Shown here: positions 12,205-56,578 of the stretch, one piece after another | Layout of the letters: each line of letters opens with the position of its first letter | How positions within the stretch are numbered: the stretch's first letter is position 1 | Origin: Deltaproteobacteria bacterium 13_1_40CM_4_68_19 | Lineage (GTDB): Bacteria; Myxococcota; Myxococcia; Myxococcales; 40CM-4-68-19 | Direction: 5' to 3' | DNA length: 64,000 bases | Assembly: GCA_001918155.1 (NCBI GenBank) | Contig: MNFJ01000105.1 | Location: forward strand, 7,299 to 71,298 | The notes under the pieces: model-generated | The model's input: only the letters and a program-made list of their open reading frames with translations | The model's database searches: none | What the model was told of the DNA's origin: nothing | Translations under genes and position numbers: made by a program

Positions 12205-12300
12205 GTAGAACACATCTCGCAGCCGGTACAGTCCAAGACACAGTCGCTAAGCCGCCTTCGGCGGCCGCGACTGAGCCGCTTCGGCGGCCGCGACTGAAAG
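12205..12300. repeat. Intergenic cassette copy 1: two tandem GC hairpins + conserved spacer ending at the pccB start
   Basis: A 44-nt core (12236..12279) is identical to 16556..16599. Flanks are about 80% similar by eye. Hairpins are of gccgcc-ttcg-gcggc type. Confidence 0.7.
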
Positions 12301-16523: not shown

Positions 16524-16620
16524 GTAGAATGCATCGCGTAGAGAGTACAGTCTAAAGACACAGTCGCTAAGCCGCCTTCGGCGGCCGCGACTGAGCCGCG
16601 CCTTCGGCGGCTGCGACTGG
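16524..16620. repeat. Intergenic cassette copy 2 (same orientation) between the RDD gene and the small membrane-protein gene
   Basis: gtagaatgcatcgcgtagagagtacagtctaaagacacagtcgctaagccgccttcggcggccgcgactgagccgc.. aligns with 12205 onward. Confidence 0.7.
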
Positions 16621-18694: not shown

Positions 18695-18756
18695 CACCAT
18701 CTTGATGGTGTTCCCCTGTCGTCACCACCATCTTGATGGCGTCCCGCTGTCGTCAC
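18695..18756. repeat. Two tandem 31-nt units, each with a CACCAT-cttg-ATGG(T/C)G hairpin; probable bidirectional terminator region
   Basis: caccatcttgatggtgttcccctgtcgtcac / caccatcttgatggcgtcccgctgtcgtcac (3 mismatches). Lies between convergent fumC (stop 18688) and pdxH (stop 18753). Confidence 0.6.
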
Positions 18757-35652: not shown

Positions 35653-35731
35653 CCGCTCCCGCGCCGAAGGCCGGTCAGCGGCTACTCTTGAGCGCAAACA
35701 CTCGCAGGCAGGTCATGAAAATGTGTTCTAG
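35650..35731. repeat. REP-like hairpin repeat (most complete copy) + AT-rich motif TCATGAAAATGTGTTCTAG
   Basis: Shares the 21-mer with 10500 and the 19-mer with 944. The motif at 35713..35731 recurs inverted at 52366..52383. Lies between the OMP stop and the lipoprotein-lysA operon. Confidence 0.7.
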
Positions 35732-40718: not shown

Positions 40719-41728
40719 TTGCGGCGAGAACGGGAGGCTGCGCACGATCTCATCGTGCGCATCGCCGCCGCATTCGCAGCCGCCCTGCTGGCCATCGGGG
40801 CCGTCACCGCCGCGTCGCTCCGTCGCTTTCCGCGCGGCGCGACTGGTCGCGCTGGATCGTGCACACGCAGGACGTGCGGCTCTCCATCGCGCGCGTCTTG
40901 ACGCTCGCGACGGAGGCCGAGTCGGCACGACGCAGCTACCTGCTTGAGGGACGCGAGGAGTCCGTCCAGTCGTTCCGCAAGGCTGAAGAGGACCTCGCGA
41001 GGGAGGTCGACAAGCTGGCCTCGCTCAACAGCGACAATTCCCGGCAACAAGAGGGCAGATGCTGCAGAGGAGGGAAGAGCTGACGCCGGCGCAGGCGAAC
41101 GCGGTCAACCGCATCCTGCGCAGTGCCGCCCGCATCGATGCGCTCGCCGGCCTGTTGATCGACTTCACCTACGCGCGCCTGGGCAAGGGCATTCCGGCGC
41201 GCGCGAGCGCCATGGATGCCCGCGCGATCGTCGAGCGCGCGATCGACGAGCTGCGCGAGACGAATCCAGGGCGTGAGATTCGCCTCGAGAGCAACGCGGC
41301 CGCGCTGTCCGGCTCCTGGGACCCGGATCGCGTCTCGCAGCTCCTGTCGAACCTCGTGTCCAATGCGCTCCAGTATGGCGCGCGCGATGCGCCGGTCACC
41401 GTATCCTTGTCTCGTGATGCGGCAGGCGCGCTGGAGGTCCGGGTCCACAACCAGGGGCCGGCCATCGCGGCCGGGTTGCGGCAGCACCTGTTCGAGCCAC
41501 ACCGGCGGAGCGAAGGCGCGGAGAGCGCGCACCCGCGCGGCCTCGGGCTGGGGCGGGCTATTCATCGTCCGCGAGATCGCTCGCGCGCATGGCGGCTCGG
41601 TCGAGGTGCGCTCCGATGCTCAGGGCACCACGTTTGCCGTCAGCCTTCCGGACGCACGGCCGCCGCCGGTGTCCGGCGATGTCGACCGGCAACGGGAGAC
41701 GGTGGCGACCGGCCTTCCTGCCGTATAG
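40719..41728 (+). pseudogene. CHASE3-type sensor histidine kinase, decayed (two frameshifts plus a large internal deletion)
   Basis: TM1 in frame 0 (IVRIAAAFAAALLAIGAVTAASLRRF). CHASE3 start in frame 2 (WIVHTQDVRLSIARVLTLATEAESARRSYLLEG..). Distal HisKA + HATPase in frame 1 (..NLVSNALQYG..VRVHNQGPAI..GLGLG). Final G2-box end in frame 2 (LFIVREIARAHGGSVEVRSDAQGTTFAVSLP). The H-box is absent. Confidence 0.6.
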
Positions 41729-44279: not shown

Positions 44280-44652
44280 ATGGACGCCATAGCCCTGTTG
44301 CTGCACGACCATCGCGAAGTCGAGCAGCTGTTCCGCCAGTTCGAAAAGCTCACGGAGCGCGCGCACAAATCGAAGCAGAAGATCGTGATGAAGGTGATCC
44401 GCGAGCTCGCGATCCACTCCGCGATCGAGGAGATGCCTCGGCGAAGACATGCTCGAGGAGCTGGGGGAGCGGATGGAGAAGGCGAAGAAGCTCGCCCCGA
44501 CCCGCCCGCATCCGCGTGCACCCGATCAGCCGCCCGGCAACCTCGTGGCCGGCACGGTGGCCGCGGTGATGGATCGAGCGAAGGACATGGTTCGAGACAG
44601 CGTCGATCGTCTCTCGCGCCGCGGCGGGCAAGACCGCGACGCCGGCGCTTAG
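44280..44652 (+). pseudogene. Hemerythrin-domain protein with internal deletion/frameshift
   Basis: Strong AGGAGG-9 nt-ATG. N-terminal part MDAIALLLHDHREVEQLFRQFE..IRELAIHSAIEE. The C-terminal part (..EDMLEELGERMEKAKKLAPTRPHPRAPDQPP..) is in a different frame. The central roughly 80 aa expected for the family are missing. Total length is 373 nt, not a multiple of 3. Confidence 0.55.
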
Positions 44653-47026: not shown

Positions 47027-47040
47027 GCCGGGCTCGCTGG

Positions 47041-47685
47041 ATGGCAGACCTTTTCGACGCGGAGATCGGCCACGTGCAGGCGCGCGAAAGCAGATCGAAC
47101 GACAAGCGCTCGCGCATCCTCGACGCGGCGATCAGGGTGTTCGCCGAGCGGGGCTTCCACAGCGCCACGGTGGCGGAGATCGCCCGCGCGGCCGGCGTGG
47201 CGGACGGCACGATCTATCTGTATTTCAAAGGGAAAGACGATCTATTGCTGAGGCTCTTCGACGAGAAGATGACCGGGCTCGTCGCCGAAATGAAGGCGGC
47301 CGTCGCCCAGGAACGCAGCGCGGCGGAGAAGCTGAAGCGCTTCATCCAGCTCCACCTCGCGCTCGTCGAGCGCAATCCCGAGCTGGCCTCGGTGCTGATC
47401 GTGGAGCTGCGACAAAGCGCGCAATTCCTCAAAGCGGCCGATCGGCAGAAGCTCGCGGCGTACGTCGATATGATCGCGGAGGTGGTCAGGGCGGGGCAGG
47501 AGAGCGGCGAGTTGGACCGCAACATCTCGCCCGCCACGGTCAAGCGCGCGATGTTCGGCGCGCTGGACGAGCTGGCGCTGGGGTGGCTCCTGGGCGGCCG
47601 CCGCGCGGCGCTGAAGAAGACCGCGGCCGAGGTCGCGGAATGGCTGGTGCGCGGGCTTCTGCCCGCAGATGGAGGAACGTCTTGA
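47041..47685 (+). CDS. TetR/AcrR family transcriptional regulator (FadR-like)
   Basis: 214 aa. HTH RILDAAIRVFAERGFHSATVAEIARAAGVADGTIYLYF. Heads the etfBA operon. Confidence 0.85.
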   Translation: MADLFDAEIGHVQARESRSNDKRSRILDAAIRVFAERGFHSATVAEIARAAGVADGTIYLYFKGKDDLLLRLFDEKMTGLVAEMKAAVAQERSAAEKLKRFIQLHLALVERNPELASVLIVELRQSAQFLKAADRQKLAAYVDMIAEVVRAGQESGELDRNISPATVKRAMFGALDELALGWLLGGRRAALKKTAAEVAEWLVRGLLPADGGTS

Positions 47686-48482
47686 AGATTCTCGTCACGG
47701 TCAAACGAGTCGAGGACTACGAGTCCAAGATCAAGGTGAAGCCCGACAACTCCTGGATCGTCACCGAGGGCGTCAACTATCGCGCGAACCCGTTCGACGA
47801 GATCGCCGTCGAGGAAGCGCTGCGGGTGCGGGACGCGAATGCTCCTTCCGAAGTGGTGGCGGTGAGCATCGGGAGCGGCGCCGCCCAGGCCGAGATCCGG
47901 TCGGCGCTGGCGATGGGCGCCGACCGCGGCATCCTCGTGAAGCATGACGGTTTCCTCGACAGCGACGCGGTGGCGCGCCTGCTCCAGAAGGTGGTCGCGA
48001 AAGAGGCGCCCGACCTCGTGCTCATGGGCAAGCAAGCGGTGGACGTCGACGACAACGTGACCGGGCAGCTGCTCGCCGAGTATCTCGGCTGGGGGCAGGC
48101 GACGTTCGCTTCCAAGAAGGAGTCGCTCGAGTCGCCGGAGGAGAAAGCGAAGAAGCCGGGCCTGCGCTTCGGGGCGGACAAGAAGACCGTCCAGGTCGCC
48201 CGCGAGGTCGACGGCGGCCTCGAAGTGCTGGAGGTCCAGCTTCCCGCCCTGATCACCGTCGACCTGCGCTTGAACGTGCCGCGCTACGCCAGCCTGCCGA
48301 ACATCATGAAGGCGAAGAAAAAGCCCATCGAAGAGCTCGCGCCCGCCGCGCTCGGCGTCGATGTCTCGCCGAAGGTCAAAGTGGTGCGGGTAGAGGCGCC
48401 GCCCGCGCGGACGGCCGGTATCAAGGTCCCGGACGTGGCGACGCTGGTGAAGAAGCTCCACGAAGACGCGAAGGTGGTCTGA
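47682..48482 (+). CDS. etfB: Electron transfer flavoprotein beta subunit
   Basis: TTG 47682 (GGAGGA 5 nt upstream) overlaps the TetR stop (TTGA). MKILVTVKRV..NPFDEIAVEEALR..LVLMGKQAVD.D..QLLAE.LGW. Confidence 0.9.
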   Translation: MKILVTVKRVEDYESKIKVKPDNSWIVTEGVNYRANPFDEIAVEEALRVRDANAPSEVVAVSIGSGAAQAEIRSALAMGADRGILVKHDGFLDSDAVARLLQKVVAKEAPDLVLMGKQAVDVDDNVTGQLLAEYLGWGQATFASKKESLESPEEKAKKPGLRFGADKKTVQVAREVDGGLEVLEVQLPALITVDLRLNVPRYASLPNIMKAKKKPIEELAPAALGVDVSPKVKVVRVEAPPARTAGIKVPDVATLVKKLHEDAKVV

Positions 48483-48484
48483 AC

Positions 48485-49435
48485 ATGGCGACGATTCTCC
48501 TCATCGCGGAGCAGGCCCACGGGCACCTCAAGAAGGCGACGCTCTCGGCGCTGACGGCTGCGCAGCAGCTGGCGCAAAAGGGCGGCGGCCAGATCCAGGC
48601 GGTGGTCATCGGCGCCGGTGCCGCGCAGTCGGCGCAGGAACTCGCCGCCTACCTTCCCACCGTGCATGCCGTGGAGGGAGGTGGCTTCGAGCACGCGCTC
48701 GCGGAGACGCACGCCGCCGCCGCCGTGGAAGCGGCGAAGAAGGTCGGCGCCACCGACGTGGTGCTCGCCGCGACCGCGTATGGCAAGGACATCGCGCCGC
48801 GCATCGCGGCAAAGCTCGCCGCGGGAGTGGCATCGGACATCCTCGCCGTGGTGAGCGCGAATCAGTTCAAGCGCGCGATGTGGGCGGGCAACGCCATCGC
48901 GACCGTCGAGGTGACCACGCCGGTGAAGGTGGTGAGCGTCCGCGCCACCGAGTTCCCTGCTGCGCAGAAGAGCGGTTCGCCCGGCGCCGTGCAGCAGCTC
49001 GGCGTCACGGCCCCCGCGCCGAAGACGAAATTCATCGAATTCAACGAGGTGAAGAGCGCGCGCCCCGAGCTGACCGAGGCGTCGGTCGTCGTCTCCGGCG
49101 GCCGCGGGACGAAGGGCGACTTCAAGCCCATCGAGGCGCTCGCCGACGTCCTGAACGCCGCGGTGGGCGCTTCCCGGGCGGTGGTCGACGCCGGCTGGCA
49201 GCCCAACGACCTGCAAGTCGGACAGACCGGCAAGGTCGTCGCTCCCAAGCTGTACATCGCCGCCGGCATCTCGGGCGCGATCCAGCACCTCGCGGGCATG
49301 AAGGGGAGCAAGACCATCGTCGCCATCAACAAGGATGCCGAGGCGCCGATCTTCCAGGTCGCCGACTACGGCCTGGTCGCCGATCTCTTCAAGGCGCTGC
49401 CCGAGCTCACCGAAGAGGTGAAGAAGCTGAAGTGA
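48485..49435 (+). CDS. etfA: Electron transfer flavoprotein alpha subunit
   Basis: 316 aa. [27 protein letters not shown]...[24 protein letters not shown] (FAD-binding signature). Confidence 0.95.
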
Positions 49436-50379
49436 CGGGCGCCCTCACCCGCCTCGGGGTTCACCGGATCCCGGTGCCCGTCCCGTTCCCCGAAGCGGGC
49501 GGTCCGGCGAACGTGTACGTGATCGAGGAGAAGGACGGCGGCGTGGCGCTGTTCGACGCCGGCATCGGCACGAAGGAAGGCCGCGACGCCCTCCACGCCG
49601 GACTCGACGAGCTGGGCATCTCCACCGGGGAGCTGCGGCGTATCTTCGTCAGCCACGGGCACATCGACCACTACGGCTGCGCCCGCGCCGCGCAGGAAGC
49701 GTCGGGGGCTCCGGTCTACGCGCACCTGCGCGATCACGACAAGCTCACCGGGCGGGACCGCACGGCGCGCCGGCTGGAGCTCTACGCCGCGTACCTCTCG
49801 CGGCTCGGCGCCCCGCCGCGCCTGCTCGAGCACGTGAGGATCCATTGGCAGGACGCGCTGCGGATGGCGCGGCCCCTCGAGCACGTCGAGCCCCTGCCGG
49901 CCGGGACCATCCTCCGCTTCAAGCGGTTCTCGGCGGAGGTCCTGCACCTGCCCGGGCACACTCCGGGCCTGATCTGCCTGTGGGCTCCGGAGGCGCGCGT
50001 CCTCTTCTCCGATGACCACCTGCTCGAGCGCGTTTCGCCGAATCCGCTGCTCGATCTCGAGGGACAGGGATCGAGGAGAAGGACGGCGGCGTGGCGCTGT
50101 TCGACGCCGGCATCGGCACGAAGGAAGGGCCGCGACGCCCTCCACGCCGGACTCGACGAGCTGGGCATCTCCACCGGGGAGCTGCGGCGTATCTTCGAGC
50201 TGCTCCTCGCCGGTCCGCTCACTCCCGCCGAGCTGGCGCCCAAGGTCTTTCCGCAGGCGAGGGAGCACCAACTCTACCTCACGCTCTCGGAGGTGCTGGG
50301 CAACCTGGAAGTGCTGGAGGCGCAGCGGCGGGTTGCGCGCAGCGAACGCCAAGGCCGCATCTACTTCGAAGCCGTGTAA
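49432..50379 (+). CDS. MBL-fold metallo-hydrolase with C-terminal winged-helix region, internally rearranged (probable pseudogene despite the open frame)
   Basis: GTGA overlap with etfA. HGHIDHYG, LPGHTPG and FSDDH are present. 50069..50197 is a copy of 49521..49648 and replaces the segment that should carry the last His ligand. Confidence 0.6.
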   Translation: MTGALTRLGVHRIPVPVPFPEAGGPANVYVIEEKDGGVALFDAGIGTKEGRDALHAGLDELGISTGELRRIFVSHGHIDHYGCARAAQEASGAPVYAHLRDHDKLTGRDRTARRLELYAAYLSRLGAPPRLLEHVRIHWQDALRMARPLEHVEPLPAGTILRFKRFSAEVLHLPGHTPGLICLWAPEARVLFSDDHLLERVSPNPLLDLEGQGSRRRTAAWRCSTPASARRKGRDALHAGLDELGISTGELRRIFELLLAGPLTPAELAPKVFPQAREHQLYLTLSEVLGNLEVLEAQRRVARSERQGRIYFEAV

Positions 50380-50388
50380 TGTGCCGGG

Positions 50389-51480
50389 GTGATCTCGCGA
50401 TGGCTCTGGCGCGCTGGCTGGTTGCTCCTGCCCGCCGCGTGGCTGCTGCACAGGTTCGTCCACAACGAAGCCCTGGTCTTCTTCGTCGCTTGCGCCTCCT
50501 TGGTTCCACTGGCGAAAACGATGGGCGACGCGACCGAAGAGCTCGCCGAGCGCATGGGACCCGCGGCGGGCAGCCTCCTCAACGCGACCTTCGGCAACGC
50601 GGCCGAGCTGATCCTCGGCATCGCGGCGTTGCGGCACGGCCACGTGGAGCTGGTGAAAGGCAGCGTCACCGGATCGATTCTCGCCAACCTGCTCCTCGTC
50701 GGAGGCGGCAGCATCGTGACCGGCGGGATCCGCTTCAGCCGGCTGCGCTTCAACCGCCTGGCGGCATCGTCCAACGTCGCTACGCTCTTCCTCGCGGTCG
50801 TCGCCATGGTCGTCCCTACCCTGCTCTCCCTCGGACCCAATCCGCGCTTCGACCCGGCGTTGCTCTCCGAGGAGATCTGCGCGGTCCTGATCGTGATGTA
50901 CGCGCTCTCGCTCTGGTTCTCGCTGCGCACGCACCGCGAGCATGTATCGTCGACGCGGGAGGACCTGGCGGCGACGCCCGCGGAGAAGGCAGCGGCTCGC
51001 CCGCGCGCGGCCGCGCATCGACGGTCCGTGGCGGTCGACCTCGGCCGGCTCCTGGTGGCGGCGGCGGCGACCGCCATCGCCAGCGAGGTCCTGGTCGGCG
51101 CGCTCGGGGGCACGGTCACGGCGCTCGGGCTTCCGGAGACGTTCGTCGGCGTGGTGATCGTCGCCATCGTGGGAAACGCGGCCGAGCACTCGACCGCGCT
51201 GCTCTTCGCCAATCGGGGGGACATGGACGTTGCGCTGGGGATCGCCTGGGAGTCGTCGAAGCAGATCGCGCTGCTGGTGGCTCCGCTGCTGGTGATCGCA
51301 GGGGCGATGCTGGGAGCGCCCATGGACCTCGCGTTCACCCGATTCGAGGTGGTGTCGTTGGGAATCTCGGTGATCGCCCTCGCCCTGATCGCGCTCGATG
51401 GCGAGACGCACTGGCTGGAAGGAGCCTTCCTGCTCGCGGTCTACGCCGTTCTCGGCCTGGGGTTCTTCTTCGTTGGCTGA
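50389..51480 (+). CDS. cax: Calcium/proton exchanger (CaCA family)
   Basis: 363 aa, about 11 TM. Paired alpha-repeat motifs LNATFGNAAELI and IVGNAAEHSTA. Confidence 0.85.
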   Translation: MISRWLWRAGWLLLPAAWLLHRFVHNEALVFFVACASLVPLAKTMGDATEELAERMGPAAGSLLNATFGNAAELILGIAALRHGHVELVKGSVTGSILANLLLVGGGSIVTGGIRFSRLRFNRLAASSNVATLFLAVVAMVVPTLLSLGPNPRFDPALLSEEICAVLIVMYALSLWFSLRTHREHVSSTREDLAATPAEKAAARPRAAAHRRSVAVDLGRLLVAAAATAIASEVLVGALGGTVTALGLPETFVGVVIVAIVGNAAEHSTALLFANRGDMDVALGIAWESSKQIALLVAPLLVIAGAMLGAPMDLAFTRFEVVSLGISVIALALIALDGETHWLEGAFLLAVYAVLGLGFFFVG

Positions 51481-52369
51481 CCTCGCGCTCACGCTGATCA
51501 TGGCGGTATGGGGGAGCAGCTTCGCCATCGTCCGGTCGCTGCTTGGAGCCGCGGAGGCCTCTGCTCTCCTGCTGGTCGCCGTCCGCATGATGGCAGCCTC
51601 CGCGCTGCTCGCCGGATTCATGGCGGTGGGTCCGGGCCGCCGTGCACAGCTGCGCGCCGTCCGCGGCGAGCTGCTTCGCGACGGCATGTTCGCGGGCGGT
51701 CTGCTCGGCATCGGCTTTCTGCTGCAGACGGAAGGGCTGCAGCGGACCACGGCGTCCCGGAGCGGCTTTCTCACCGGCACCCTCGTGGTCATGGTGCCGC
51801 TGATCGAGTTCGGCCTGTTCCGGAAGCGCCCGACGTTGCCGGCGCTGCTCGGGGTGCTTCTTGCCTTCACCGGGATGACCGCTCTTTCCGCCCCCTGGTC
51901 CGACGCCTCGCAGGCGACCGCGTTGGGCGATGGGCTCACGCTCGCCTGCGCGGTGGTCTTCGCCGGCCAGATCGTGGCGCTCGGCCGGGTCGCGCCCAAG
52001 CACCCGGTCCTGCCGCTGGTGCTCGTGCAGCTCGCCACCACGGGCGCTCTCGCGGCGCTCGTCGGCCCCTTCGTCGAGGTGCAGCACTTCTCGGCGGCGC
52101 CGCGGCTCTGGGCGGCCGTGCTCTATCTGGCGGTGTTCGCGACGCTCCTGGCGTTCGGGATCCAGACCTGGGCGCAAAAGATCCTCCCCCCGGTCCGCGT
52201 CGCGCTGATCTCAGCACTGGAGCCGGTGTTCGCCGCGCTCTGGGCGGCCCTGCTCATCGGCGAGCGTCTCACGCTCCACGAGATGGCGGGCGGGGCCTTG
52301 ATCGTGGTGGGCGTCGCGGTGGGCGAGGCCGGAGCGATGCTGCGGGCCCGGGCGCGTGCGCCGGGCTAG
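51473..52369 (+). CDS. EamA/DMT family transporter
   Basis: About 10 TM. ..IMAVWGSSFAIV.. and two EamA halves. Probable TTG 51473 start (8-nt overlap with cax) or ATG 51500. Confidence 0.8.
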   Translation: MADLALTLIMAVWGSSFAIVRSLLGAAEASALLLVAVRMMAASALLAGFMAVGPGRRAQLRAVRGELLRDGMFAGGLLGIGFLLQTEGLQRTTASRSGFLTGTLVVMVPLIEFGLFRKRPTLPALLGVLLAFTGMTALSAPWSDASQATALGDGLTLACAVVFAGQIVALGRVAPKHPVLPLVLVQLATTGALAALVGPFVEVQHFSAAPRLWAAVLYLAVFATLLAFGIQTWAQKILPPVRVALISALEPVFAALWAALLIGERLTLHEMAGGALIVVGVAVGEAGAMLRARARAPG

Positions 52370-52383
52370 AACACATTTCATGA
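52366..52383. repeat. AT-rich motif CTAGAACACATTTCATGA (reverse complement of the motif at 35713..35731)
   Basis: Hand alignment: the reverse complement equals TCATGAAATGTGTTCTAG versus TCATGAAAATGTGTTCTAG at 35713. Lies in the 33-nt gap between the EamA gene and the next gene. Confidence 0.6.
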
Positions 52384-52402
52384 GCCGTGCTGGCAGGGGC
52401 GC

Positions 52403-53389
52403 GTGAGGCACGGGGTCGACCCACCCGAAGTGGAGCGCGCCGCCAACGGGCTCCGCGTTCGGGGGCACGGCCTGTACCTCGAGCCGAGAGGACGGCCGCC
52501 GCTCGGGTTTCTCGCCCACGCGCGGGGCGCGCCTCCGGTCCTGCCGGAACGGATGGTGGTCACCGGTCCAACCAGCAAGCTGCTCGAGGCAGCTTTGCCG
52601 CGTGCGCTTCGCAGGACGGCCACGCTTCCGGCAGTGTACGGCCAGACGTTCGCGCTCGGCTCGCTGCGCCTCACCCTCCATCCCGCCGGGCACGTGCTCG
52701 GCAGCGCGCAGGTCCGTTGCGAGGCCCAAGGCCTCGACCTGGTGTACGCCGGAGACATCGGCGGCGCGGGAGCGCGCGCCTCGCTCACGGCGGAAACGCT
52801 GGAGCAGCTCACCTGCACGACGCTGGCCATCCGCGCCGTGTACGGGCACCCTCGTTACGTCTTTCCACCCAGGGCGCTGCTGCTCGAGCGCCTGCAGGAC
52901 TTCGTCGAGCGCGCGCTGCGCGACGGGAAGACGCCGGTGATCGTCGGAGCCGCGCTCGGGGAGGCGCAGGAGGTCGTGCGGCACCTCGGAGGCCGCCGGA
53001 CGCTGCGGCTGCACCCTACCGCCTTTCGCGCCTGCGAGGTCTACACCGCGCAGGGGTGTGAGCTGAAGGGATTCGTGCGCCTCGATGACGAGGGAGACGT
53101 GGTGGTCGTTCCGCCCACCGTCCGCCTGGCGCGGTTGAAGCTGCGCGCCTACCGGATCTGCGTGCTCTCCGGCCGGGCCGTCGACGGAATCGCCGGGGCG
53201 GACGAGGCGCTGCCGCTCGCCGATCACGCCGGATACGACGAGCTCCTCGGCTACATCAGGGCGACAGGAGCAAGGCGTGTGCTCACCATCGGCGGGCACG
53301 CGGAGGATCTGGCGCAAGCGGTTCGAGCGCCCGGGATCGAGGCGTTGGCGATCCGCGAGCAGCACCAGCTTGCCCTGCCGGGCCTGTGA
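52403..53389 (+). CDS. MBL-fold beta-CASP-like protein (ligase-associated exonuclease-like) lacking the HxHxDH motif
   Basis: 328 aa. LHPAGHVLGSAQV, LVYAGDIG and PLADHAGYDELLGYI..VLTIGGH match beta-CASP landmarks. The position of HxHxDH reads LAHARGA. Confidence 0.5.
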   Translation: MRHGVDPPEVERAANGLRVRGHGLYLEPRGRPPLGFLAHARGAPPVLPERMVVTGPTSKLLEAALPRALRRTATLPAVYGQTFALGSLRLTLHPAGHVLGSAQVRCEAQGLDLVYAGDIGGAGARASLTAETLEQLTCTTLAIRAVYGHPRYVFPPRALLLERLQDFVERALRDGKTPVIVGAALGEAQEVVRHLGGRRTLRLHPTAFRACEVYTAQGCELKGFVRLDDEGDVVVVPPTVRLARLKLRAYRICVLSGRAVDGIAGADEALPLADHAGYDELLGYIRATGARRVLTIGGHAEDLAQAVRAPGIEALAIREQHQLALPGL

Positions 53390-53396
53390 CTCCGTT

Positions 53397-54905
53397 CTAA
53401 CGGATGCTGTAGCGTCCCCCGTTCTCGGACGCGCGCTTTTCGCGCACCAGCTTTTCCAGATGAGCGAGCAGACTTCGTTCCGCGAGCGGATACAGGTCCG
53501 GCTTCACGTCGGGGTATGCCGCGGGAACCAGCTCGGCGGGCGTCGCCGGAGCTGCGGCCTTCTTCAACGAACCGACCACCAGCTCTTCGCGCTTCAGCCG
53601 GTGCTCGCGATACTCCTCGAGCTTCGCGACGCCGCCGGGCACGACCGGGCCGTGGGCCGGATAGATGCAGCCCGGCTTCGTCTCCAGCAGGCGATCGAGG
53701 GAGGCGAGATAGTCCTTCATGTCCCCTTCGGGCGGGTCGATGACGACCGTCCCCACTCCCGCGACCAGGTCGCCGGCCACGATCGCGCCGCTGCCCTCCT
53801 CGCGCAGGCAGAGATGGCCGCGGGTGTGCCCGGGCAGGTGCAGCGCGCGCCATCCGCGCGGCCCGACGTCGAACCGCGCGCCGTCCTCCGCGATGCGATC
53901 GACGCCGAAGTCGAGCATCGCGGCCGTCTCGCGGGTGGCCGCGATCGGCAGCCCGAGAACGCGGGCGCCGCCGGTATGGTCGTGGTGGTGGTGCGTGAGC
54001 AGCACGCCGACTGCCCTGCGCCCTTCTTCCGCGAGCTTGTCGAGCGTCTGGCGCAGGATCGCCTGCTCCTCCGGCCAGGGCGATCCAGGGTCCACCACCC
54101 ACAGCTCGTCGTCGCCGAGGAGCAGGCAATTGGTGTGCGTCGCCGGCGGCAGCGTGGGCGTCCGGAGCGGCACCATGATCAGCCCGCGCTGGAACTCGAT
54201 CCGCTCCACGACGTGCTCGCGGATCGGCAGCTTCCAGGGCGCCTTCTCGGGAGCGGTCAAGAGGGGGAGCGCGTCGCGCGGATGCCCCGTTGCCCACGCG
54301 AGCGCCTTGAGCGTGTGCCACGCCGGCGGATGCAGGAGCGCGGAGCCCGCCTCCCAGCGGCGCAGCGCCGCGGCGGGATCGATCCACTCGCCGTCGGCAA
54401 GCTCGCCCGGCCAGATCTCGGCCACTTCGCCCGGTGGCAAGTCGACCATGTAGAACCGCGCGTCGAAGCGGATCGGCATCGCCGGCGGCGTCACCCAGCG
54501 GCCGGCGGGCGCGTACCAGCGCGCATCGACGCGCAGGCGATGGCCGGCCAGGAAGTCGCCGAACGAGGCTGCCTTCTCGCCCGGCTCGGGCCGACGCAGC
54601 AGCGCCGTGCGCATCCGCTTGCGCTCCGCGGCGGGAACGGCGGCGGCGCCCGGCACCGCGAGCACCCCGGTCTCCTCGAACAGCTCGCGGGCCGCGGCGA
54701 CGACGCACGGCGCTTCCGCGGCGCCGAGCGCCTCGCCGCCGTCCAGCGGCACCCCGGAGTCTTGCACGTCTACGCGGCCGCCCGGAAACGCGTAGAAACC
54801 CCCCGCGAACCTGAGCTCGTCGCCGCGACGCACCCAGAGCACGCGGCCGTCTTCGCGGACCAGGATCACGGAGGCGGCGGGCTTGACGATGACGGCTCGG
54901 TTCAC
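53397..54905 (-). CDS. NUDIX hydrolase - MBL-fold metallo-hydrolase fusion protein
   Basis: 502 aa. NUDIX box GGRVD..AAARELFEETGV. MBL motifs THHHHDHTGG, LPGHTRGH and PAHGP. C-terminal helical/wHTH region. Confidence 0.8.
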   Translation of the reverse strand: MNRAVIVKPAASVILVREDGRVLWVRRGDELRFAGGFYAFPGGRVDVQDSGVPLDGGEALGAAEAPCVVAAARELFEETGVLAVPGAAAVPAAERKRMRTALLRRPEPGEKAASFGDFLAGHRLRVDARWYAPAGRWVTPPAMPIRFDARFYMVDLPPGEVAEIWPGELADGEWIDPAAALRRWEAGSALLHPPAWHTLKALAWATGHPRDALPLLTAPEKAPWKLPIREHVVERIEFQRGLIMVPLRTPTLPPATHTNCLLLGDDELWVVDPGSPWPEEQAILRQTLDKLAEEGRRAVGVLLTHHHHDHTGGARVLGLPIAATRETAAMLDFGVDRIAEDGARFDVGPRGWRALHLPGHTRGHLCLREEGSGAIVAGDLVAGVGTVVIDPPEGDMKDYLASLDRLLETKPGCIYPAHGPVVPGGVAKLEEYREHRLKREELVVGSLKKAAAPATPAELVPAAYPDVKPDLYPLAERSLLAHLEKLVREKRASENGGRYSIR

Positions 54906-54955
54906 TCGCAGCTCTCCCTTGCGCGAATCGGGATGATCCCTTAGACCGGGGACCG

Positions 54956-56578
54956 ATGTTCTATCTCGCGCCGCACCCGAAGCTCGACCGGCCCCGCCGC
55001 GGCAGTCCGCTGATGTTCACCGTCCCCTGGGTGGAGAAGTATCTCTCTCGCGTGCGTCCCTGGCACGTGATTGCGATCTGGGTGCCGATCTCGCTGTACA
55101 TGCTCTACCGAGGTTCGTACCAGATGGGCCCCCTGGCAGTCGCCGGCCTGGCGGCCGCGGGCGTGTTCTCCTGGACGTTGCTCGAATATCTGCTGCACCG
55201 CTGGGTCTTCCACTTCCAGCCGGACGCGCGCTCCGAGCTGCAGCGGGACGCATCCTTCCTGATCCACGGCATCCACCACGACTATCCCTGGGATCGCGAT
55301 CGGTTGGTGATGCCTCCCACGGTCACCGCGGTGCTCGCCATCGCCGTCTGGGTGGCGTTCCGCTGGATGGACGGGCTCGAGTACGCCTGGTTCGCCGGGA
55401 TGGTCGCCGGATACGTCTGGTACGATCTCACGCACTACTATCTGCACCACGCCGCACCGACGACGGCCGCGGGGAAATGGCTCCGCAGGTACCATCTGGT
55501 CCACCACTTCCAGACTCCCGACCGCCGCTACGGGATCACCACCCCGCTCTGGGACCTGGTGTTCGGAACGTATCCGCGCGACCGCTACCAGGGTCTGCCG
55601 GACGACGAGGCCCGAAAGGGTTTGCACCTCTGGTTTTGGCTGTACAGTCTCGCCTGCGCACCGGTCATGCAAGAGGCGCGTCTGGAGCGCGATTCGCGGC
55701 CGACGGAGCGCGAGCTGGAGTCGAGCGAGCGCGCGGCATCGTGCCCGGCCCGCGCCGGGCTCCTGCTGCTGCCCGGCCTCATGCAGATGTGCCGCGGGCG
55801 TACGTCCGAGGGAGTGGCCCTCGCATCGCTCGCGGTTGCGGAGCTCGGCGCCGCGGCGACCGGAGGAGTGACGAACGGTCTCGAGACGTCTGCTGCCGGC
55901 GTGCCGTTGATCGCGCTCGGCGACCTCCTCACGCTGTCGGTGATGGACGTCGCCCTGGAAAACCAGCGCTCCTCACGCCTGCGGTACGTTCCGCAGGAAT
56001 CGCTCGGCGAGCTCGCGCTGGCGCCCTTCTCCGGCCAGGTGCTGTCCCGGCCGACCGTCTGGGCGGGAGTCGCCGGCTCGCTCGCCGCCGGCATCCTGGT
56101 GTCCGCCGTGGTCGATCGCGGCATCGACACGCACAACGCAGGCAAGCGGCCGGTCATCTTCGGTCGGGAGATGAACACGGCGCCGGGGTATCTGCTGGCC
56201 GGCGCCATCGGAGCGGGCTTGTTCGAGCACGTTGCCCTCGCCGAAGAGATGGCATTCCGGGGAGTGCTGCAGTCGAGCTGGGCGCGCTCGCTGGACGAGA
56301 CCCGCGGCTGGGCGTACGCCTCGCTGCTCTTCGGTGCGGTCCACGGTTCGAACATCCTCTTCATCGACCGCAGCCAGCGCCTCGCCTATCTCGCAGCCGG
56401 CGTTCCCTTCATCACGCTGCTCGGCGCCTACCTGGGGCTCGCCTACCGCTGGAACCGGTATAGCCTCGCGCCTTCCGTCGCGATCCACTTCTGGTACGAT
56501 CTCCTCATCGAGGCGGCCGGGTTCGTGGCCGACCCGAAGAACTCGCCGCTCGCAGTCTCCTGGGGAATGCCCTTCTGA
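54956..56578 (+). CDS. Fusion ORF: fatty acid hydroxylase/sterol desaturase-family domain + CPBP (CAAX/Abi) intramembrane protease domain
   Basis: N-terminal His boxes HRWVFH, HGIHHDYPWD and HYYLHH..HHF. C-terminal CPBP motifs EEMAFRG, FGAVH and HFWYD. There is no stop between the halves. An in-frame ATG at 55667 could also initiate the CPBP part alone. Confidence 0.65.
   Translation: MFYLAPHPKLDRPRRGSPLMFTVPWVEKYLSRVRPWHVIAIWVPISLYMLYRGSYQMGPLAVAGLAAAGVFSWTLLEYLLHRWVFHFQPDARSELQRDASFLIHGIHHDYPWDRDRLVMPPTVTAVLAIAVWVAFRWMDGLEYAWFAGMVAGYVWYDLTHYYLHHAAPTTAAGKWLRRYHLVHHFQTPDRRYGITTPLWDLVFGTYPRDRYQGLPDDEARKGLHLWFWLYSLACAPVMQEARLERDSRPTERELESSERAASCPARAGLLLLPGLMQMCRGRTSEGVALASLAVAELGAAATGGVTNGLETSAAGVPLIALGDLLTLSVMDVALENQRSSRLRYVPQESLGELALAPFSGQVLSRPTVWAGVAGSLAAGILVSAVVDRGIDTHNAGKRPVIFGREMNTAPGYLLAGAIGAGLFEHVALAEEMAFRGVLQSSWARSLDETRGWAYASLLFGAVHGSNILFIDRSQRLAYLAAGVPFITLLGAYLGLAYRWNRYSLAPSVAIHFWYDLLIEAAGFVADPKNSPLAVSWGMPF

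Follow-up and report, generated by a model that had tools for sequence, protein, structure and literature searches.

An intragenic repeat in an etfA-linked MBL-fold hydrolase gene is probably a local mis-assembly that joins a full-length and a deletion allele

Structures of TTHA1429-like MBL-fold hydrolases are available as PDB 2zo4 and, for the 'paraoxonase' of Bacillus sp. S3wahi, as 8zxg. The intact allele of the gene considered here aligns end to end with these proteins (E = 1e-26 to 1e-27), and the alignment includes both the GH motif and the C-terminal helices. In contrast, the version of the protein encoded in the window, i.e., the whole 64-kb stretch of DNA that was analyzed, lacks positions 160-196 of the Lactamase_B profile together with the GH motif. 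Rearrangements with which this version may be compared have been described as template switching of the FoSTeS/MMBIR type, as microhomology-mediated deletion by slipped-strand or illegitimate recombination, and as an error class of IDBA-UD metagenomes that comprises local errors and duplicated sequence at scaffold joins (Chen et al. 2020, Genome Res 30:315, PMC7111523). The window protein (OLC74957.1, locus AUH83_09010) is encoded on a 75-kb contig of the MAG 'Deltaproteobacteria bacterium 13_1_40CM_4_68_19'. This MAG is an idba_ud assembly (default settings) of 250-bp reads, for which neither curation nor error correction was reported (PMC5103831).

The MBL-fold gene (49432..50379, plus strand) comprises an open reading frame of 315 codons, and its GTG start overlaps the TGA stop of etfA as GTGA. 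TetR, etfB and etfA lie directly upstream (47040..49435, plus strand), a synteny that is kept in all related contigs. The gene had originally been described as the last, GTGA-coupled member of a TetR-etfB-etfA operon. The GTGA overlap is present as described, but because a Na/Ca-exchanger gene begins 10 nt downstream on the same strand, with an EamA gene next to it, the MBL-fold gene is not demonstrably the last member. Self-comparison of the window returned two stretches of 100 % identity within the gene, one of 60 nt (49521-49580 and 50069-50128) and one of 70 nt (49579-49648 and 50128-50197). The 128/129-nt repeat that had been predicted was thereby recovered: 128 nt at 49521..49648 (copy 1, plus strand) match 129 nt at 50069..50197 (copy 2, plus strand), and the sole difference between the copies is indeed an additional G in the GGG run at 50127..50129 (plus strand). 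This pair is the only long perfect repeat within the 64-kb window, therefore the copies are not a chance match. The copies are offset by 548 nt up to the extra G and by 549 nt, i.e., 183 codons, beyond it, and the description of the reading frame also held, copy 2 being entered out of frame and the frame of copy 1 being regained past the extra G.

Imperfect repeats were observed at other positions of the window. A hairpin-rich repeat of 57 nt with GCCGCCTTCGGCGGC motifs occurs at 12235-12291 and 16555-16611 (91 % identical), a 40-nt repeat occurs at 930-969 and 35663-35702, 34.7 kb apart (88 %), and a tandem 31-mer lies at 18695-18756 (90 %). A 39-nt inverted repeat (49942-49980 vs 53805-53843, 85 % complementary) is the conserved HLPGHTxG-coding stretch of two paralogous MBL genes on opposite strands. 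The gene at 53397..54905, which had served as the intact MBL domain for comparison in the original prediction, is an MBL gene but is located on the minus strand and represents a different, NUDIX-MBL-WH paralog.

Homologs of the MBL-fold gene number more than a thousand, and the close ones encode ~328 aa. Alignment with these orthologs revealed that the window has only 43 codons in place of 56 native ones (AEPTHKALVAYVESARRARALPAALVAPGHGEPFSGHQMVIDRLLAFYEKRQQRIL), whose residues are conserved among the orthologs. The breakpoints were mapped on a syntenic ENA contig that is 99.7 % identical (L001): the window is collinear with the native sequence up to 50068 and again from 50188, and the 129-nt copy takes the place of 168 native nt, so that the gene is shorter by 39 nt on balance. 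The 420 nt between the two copies (49649..50068, plus strand, hereafter X) encode MBL motifs 2-4. In the window protein, the match to Pfam Lactamase_B (PF00753) extends over profile positions 4-159 of 196, compared to 4-196 in the intact allele (P0002), and therefore the last metal-binding His is missing. This loss had been anticipated, and the GH of APGHGEPF (motif 5) is located within the lost segment, so that the window protein does not possess a complete MBL domain with its motif 5 His. In a structure prediction, the insert derived from copy 2 appeared disordered (pLDDT < 50 for residues 195-248) between flanks that were predicted with confidence. The possibility that orthologs carry the insertion as a conserved, folded repeat, which had been raised with the original prediction, was not borne out, as none has the insertion and the insert is predicted to be disordered. 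A DGR-like or otherwise programmed repeat was also considered and dismissed: the copies are identical except for one G, there are no adenine-specific substitutions, and no ortholog has the repeat.

The locus was compared with 27 independent contigs of the same soil population. An intact 328-aa gene, the full-length (F) allele, was present in 16 of these, which are locally 97.8-99.9 % identical to the window. The F set includes two sibling MAGs from the same study (L006, L007) and the Logan assembly of SRR2546425; L006-L008 are derived from MAGs of this study or from a run with an adjacent SRA accession. Neither of the two rearranged junctions of the window was present in any of the 16 F contigs. 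The other 11 contigs carry a deletion (D) allele. A search with the junction peptide identified a protein of 132 aa (P0135), in which residues 1-72 continue straight into the final 60 through the same junction as in the window, ELRRIF followed by ELLLAGPLT. The cluster of P0135 consists of seven sequence variants on ~15 contigs, eleven of which (L019-L029) were compared. They reach up to 29 kb, are fully syntenic, and originate from NCBI metagenome assemblies, from ENA (with 'k141_' MEGAHIT-style names and 'CRIT18-1 ... scaffold') and from three JGI metagenomes. For the JGI identifiers (3300026296, 3300026297, 3300002560) no literature match was found, and these assemblies may or may not derive from the physical samples of the MAGs. 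All 11 D contigs contain the right junction of the window, GTATCTTCG joined to AGCTGCTCC, with no X segment between.

In the D allele, 588 nt (196 codons) are missing in frame, and the deletion is bounded by the homeologous decamers CGTATCTTCG and CGCATCCTCG. The D-allele junction is the right junction of the window (50188..50197, plus strand), where CGTATCTTCG agrees with the native CGCATCCTCG at 8 of 10 positions (CGYATCYTCG) and where an exact microhomology of 3 nt, TCG, is found at 50195-50197. The two deletion end points have no k-mer of useful length in common; therefore, the D junction comes from reads and the D allele is real. The junction also recurs in independent assemblies and samples (11 contigs). 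Thus, the D allele is a real and widespread in-frame deletion allele of the MBL-fold gene. Copy 1, a native N-terminal coding segment, occurs once in both F and D alleles, X occurs in the full-length allele only, and the C-terminal helical, winged-helix-like part (50198..50379, plus strand) is common to both alleles and in frame in both. With its 588 nt and its exact microhomology of 3 nt, the D allele fits the microhomology-mediated deletions, and, as is the case for these, it segregates with the intact allele in one population. The model accounts for the 132-aa D allele but not for the duplicated arrangement in the window. The D allele was found on one haplotype group (T at 49641). In two D contigs, L021 and L023, identity amounts to only 95-97 % in the flanks but is nearly complete across the gene region, suggesting a spread of the D allele by homologous recombination.

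Compared with a D contig, the window has the order U-R-[X-R'+G]-D', where R is copy 1, X comprises the initial 420 nt of the sequence that D has lost, and R' repeats the 128 nt located ahead of the deletion junction. The closest F contigs (L001, L006, L007, L008, L013) do not differ from the window in X. Copy 2 is D-allele sequence into the deletion junction plus one extra G, and from 50069 to 55614 the window differs from the D contig L027 by one mismatch and the extra G in 5546 nt (99.96 % identical). The N-terminal 217 nt of the window gene are identical to five D contigs and differ from L006-L008 at 49459. As collapsing the repeats would give exactly the U-R-D' order of the D contigs, the window could in principle represent the true common structure and the 132-aa contigs collapsed copies of it, an explanation that we regard as scarcely credible. 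The eleven D contigs span at least three naming or assembly styles, including 'k141_', and if this name stands for MEGAHIT final-k contigs (k = 141, judging by the names), k exceeds the length of the repeat. In addition, the extra G and the left junction occur in 0 of the 11 D contigs, the native 168 nt that are absent from the window are present in 16 contigs, and assemblers break at such loops and do not skip 420 nt. A collapse of this kind is effectively refuted already by the 16 F and 11 D contigs.

The left junction (50068..50069, plus strand) is unique to the MAG and has no microhomology. Neither this junction nor the GGG run with the extra G was found in any of the 27 related contigs. 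Among ~15 billion proteins, no other protein of the window shape was identified, and the cluster of the window protein (P0001) has this single member. The junction-peptide search missed P0001 itself and is hence not a sensitive negative test for full-length proteins. A 25-mer ending at the left junction retrieved no window-type contig from 241 million JGI records, and all related retrievals were of the F type; two of four matches in this search (L002, L003) were rejected, as they represent an unrelated protease-like gene. Exact look-up of the window protein in a contig index gave no match. Also a scan of a genome-contig collection with the 25-mer flank gave no match, indicating that the MAG is absent from that collection. 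In the F alleles, the base that follows 50068 is a C/T SNP; L001, L007 and L008 have C there, whereas the 13 others have T. Only 11 sites within the 588 nt are polymorphic, of which 2, this one included, vary among the closest haplotypes, and the chance that a random breakpoint adjoins such a site is ~0.3-2 %.

The comparison of the sequences makes it probable that the duplication is a local mis-assembly and not a feature of any genome, and that the 'duplicate' is most likely the 5' part of a D allele placed after a truncated full-length allele. Among the explanations that the original prediction had left unranked, the evidence thus favors an assembly artifact, plus coincidence for the open frame. 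Allele type is not reflected in the flanking SNPs, as L006 (F) resembles L027 (D) and the window, and L007 (F) resembles L028 (D). Since F and D alleles accordingly occur on the same strain backgrounds, a mixed F/D bubble within one sample is plausible, and from the site and the matching haplotypes we infer that both alleles were present in sample 13_1_40CM_4. A search for SNPs that separate F from D haplotypes and could expose a haplotype switch inside the window yielded only 49459, with weak association.

In such a sample, the idba_ud graph may have branched at the F/D bubble. The contig of the F allele would have stopped at 50068, directly before the C/T SNP, which would act as a de Bruijn branch point, and a second contig or read from the D allele would have begun at the equivalent of 49521 and run through the deletion junction into the downstream genes. 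This D-allele piece would have carried the additional G as an error or minor variant, rendering its k-mers distinct from those of copy 1. Owing to the extra G, copy 1 and copy 2 have no k-mers in common at k >= 71, and therefore a separate graph path and with it a second copy would be possible. The two pieces may then have been concatenated, probably by paired-end distance and not by sequence overlap, so that ~129 nt of wrong sequence would occupy the place of 168 native nt. We infer that the join at 50068/50069 lacks read support. The start of copy 2 lies exactly 60 nt ahead of the position at which the copies first differ. As 60 is one of the default k values of idba_ud, this offset may point to the assembler, although the match is suggestive only.

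Further properties of the locus are in line with a mis-join. The arrangement is absent from independent assemblies of the same population, as judged by the 27 contigs, the single-member cluster and the JGI scan. Both breakpoints coincide with graph branch points, the C/T SNP on the left and the F/D indel junction on the right, and the contig, which has two further private indels, stems from an error-prone, uncurated pipeline (PMC5103831). Similar to the IDBA-UD join errors (PMC7111523), the window derives from an uncurated idba_ud MAG, its arrangement is unique to one assembly, its breakpoints are located at population micro-diversity, and the duplicate appears where two contigs would meet. 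Unlike in these scaffold-join errors, there are no Ns at the join, and the duplicated piece is derived from a second (deletion) allele and not from a simple overlap of the flanks.

Several observations speak against a mis-assembly. No pure de Bruijn path leads across the left junction, so that a scaffolding or local-assembly step is needed, and a step of this kind in idba_ud is presumed here. Also the start of copy 2 at 49521 does not coincide with any known SNP or other variant, and a frame-correcting +1 as the sole difference between the copies would equally be expected under selection on a real allele. A blunt left join without microhomology would in addition fit a ligation chimera formed in vitro, in which a library fragment joining F and D molecules by PCR or ligation was amplified and went into the assembly. 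The population does contain both parental molecules. However, a single fragment of this kind should not out-compete ~19x genuine coverage in the graph, and the SNP that adjoins the join would be left unexplained; we therefore regard such a chimera as very unlikely.

Alternatively, the arrangement may be real and may have been the precursor of the D allele. A double template switch would have copied 49521-49648 over the native 168 nt, with a +1 G slip during or after that synthesis keeping the frame open, and recombination between the 128-nt direct repeats would later have given the 132-aa D allele with the same right junction. The window and all D alleles do share the exact right junction, and its location in an 8/10 homeology patch with a 3-nt match suits a microhomology-primed switch. 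Deletion between direct repeats of 128 nt is also easier than deletion at a 3-nt microhomology, as is established for RecA-dependent repeat deletion. The open frame and the frame-correcting nature of the sole copy difference are likewise consistent with a real allele. As in template switching of the FoSTeS/MMBIR type, a nearby upstream segment appears in direct orientation over native sequence in the window; one junction shows homeology, and the copied tract contains a 1-nt slip. In contrast to such events, in which microhomology is expected at each switch and the junctions should be reproducible in independent data, the left junction at 50068/50069 has no microhomology, is unique to the MAG without independent support, and has its breakpoint at a SNP. 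This coincidence with a SNP branch point is not predicted by a precursor model. Moreover, the arrangement is known from one uncurated idba_ud MAG only, which has other private indels, the extra G has been retained by 0 of 11 D alleles, and the D allele can be explained by a single slippage event with no need for an intermediate. Taken together, we consider a real precursor unlikely.

In the original prediction the extra G was said to restore the frame, which implies compensation. Such compensation is not supported, as the G is absent from all 11 contigs that have the right junction. Even if the extra G were absent, the first stop codon in frame would be a TGA overlapping the GTG with which the next gene starts. 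For an arbitrary join, the spacing would be a multiple of 3 with a chance of 1/3, and out-of-frame stretches of 20 codons in the neighboring genes are free of stop codons in 65 % (+1 shift) and 89 % (+2 shift) of cases. The chance of an open, in-frame join is thus about 0.2-0.3. A compensatory restoration of the frame under selection was rejected as unnecessary, given this chance and a frame that is open even without the G. If the duplication is an assembly artifact, the open frame across the join is a coincidence.

Further indels were found on the same contig. Within the 21 kb that are covered by relatives, the window contains two more private, gene-breaking indels (+GGGC at 41551 and -35 nt at 55614), both at micro-diverse or hypervariable spots, against only ~20-30 SNPs in the same 21 kb. 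Disruptive indels in such a proportion to SNPs would not plausibly persist under purifying selection and are typical of local assembly errors. At 41551-41554, a GGGC GGGC tandem duplication shifts the frame in the C-terminal part of the HATPase_c domain of a histidine kinase, at its GLGL box. The duplication is absent in 9 of 9 covering relatives and is probably another local assembly or consensus error. At 55614, within the ORF 54956..56578, a private deletion of 35 nt (CCTCGAGGCGGGTGCGTAGGCGCTCCCAGCCACAG in the relatives) has its start within the palindrome CCCGCCTCGAGGCGGG. A fatty-acid-hydroxylase gene thereby loses its TAG stop and is fused in frame to the Rce1-like/CPBP gene, creating an ORF of 540 aa. 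All six covering relatives have two separate genes at this position, and the spot is hypervariable among them.

Other differences were not private to the window. Two segments of L009-L012 are missing from the window as well as from L006, L007, L020, L027 and L028. At 41057-41060, a CHASE3-HisKA-HATPase kinase gene, which encodes 460 aa in L009, lacks 414 nt, and at 44436-44437, 242 nt are missing where L009 has a 204-aa hemerythrin gene. Since both gaps are common to several independent assemblies, they look like real lineage-level deletions. A 1-nt T indel at 40823 is common to the window, L007, L027 and L028 and distinguishes them from L006, L010, L011 and L020; it reflects either polymorphism in the population or a homopolymer error that has occurred repeatedly.

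The public protein record OLC74957.1 is thus very probably chimeric, would have been made by no cell, and should be treated with caution. The contig contains no fewer than two other suspect gene-breaking indels, among them the one behind the false 540-aa fusion ORF. Should the arrangement prove to be real, it would represent a rare intermediate in repeat-mediated domain loss, and a two-step route to the in-frame excision of a domain. The underlying biology appears modest and ordinary: a 588-nt in-frame deletion allele of an etfA-linked MBL-fold hydrolase occurs alongside the intact gene, and this F/D polymorphism is found on the same strain backgrounds of a Myxococcota-like population in grassland soil.
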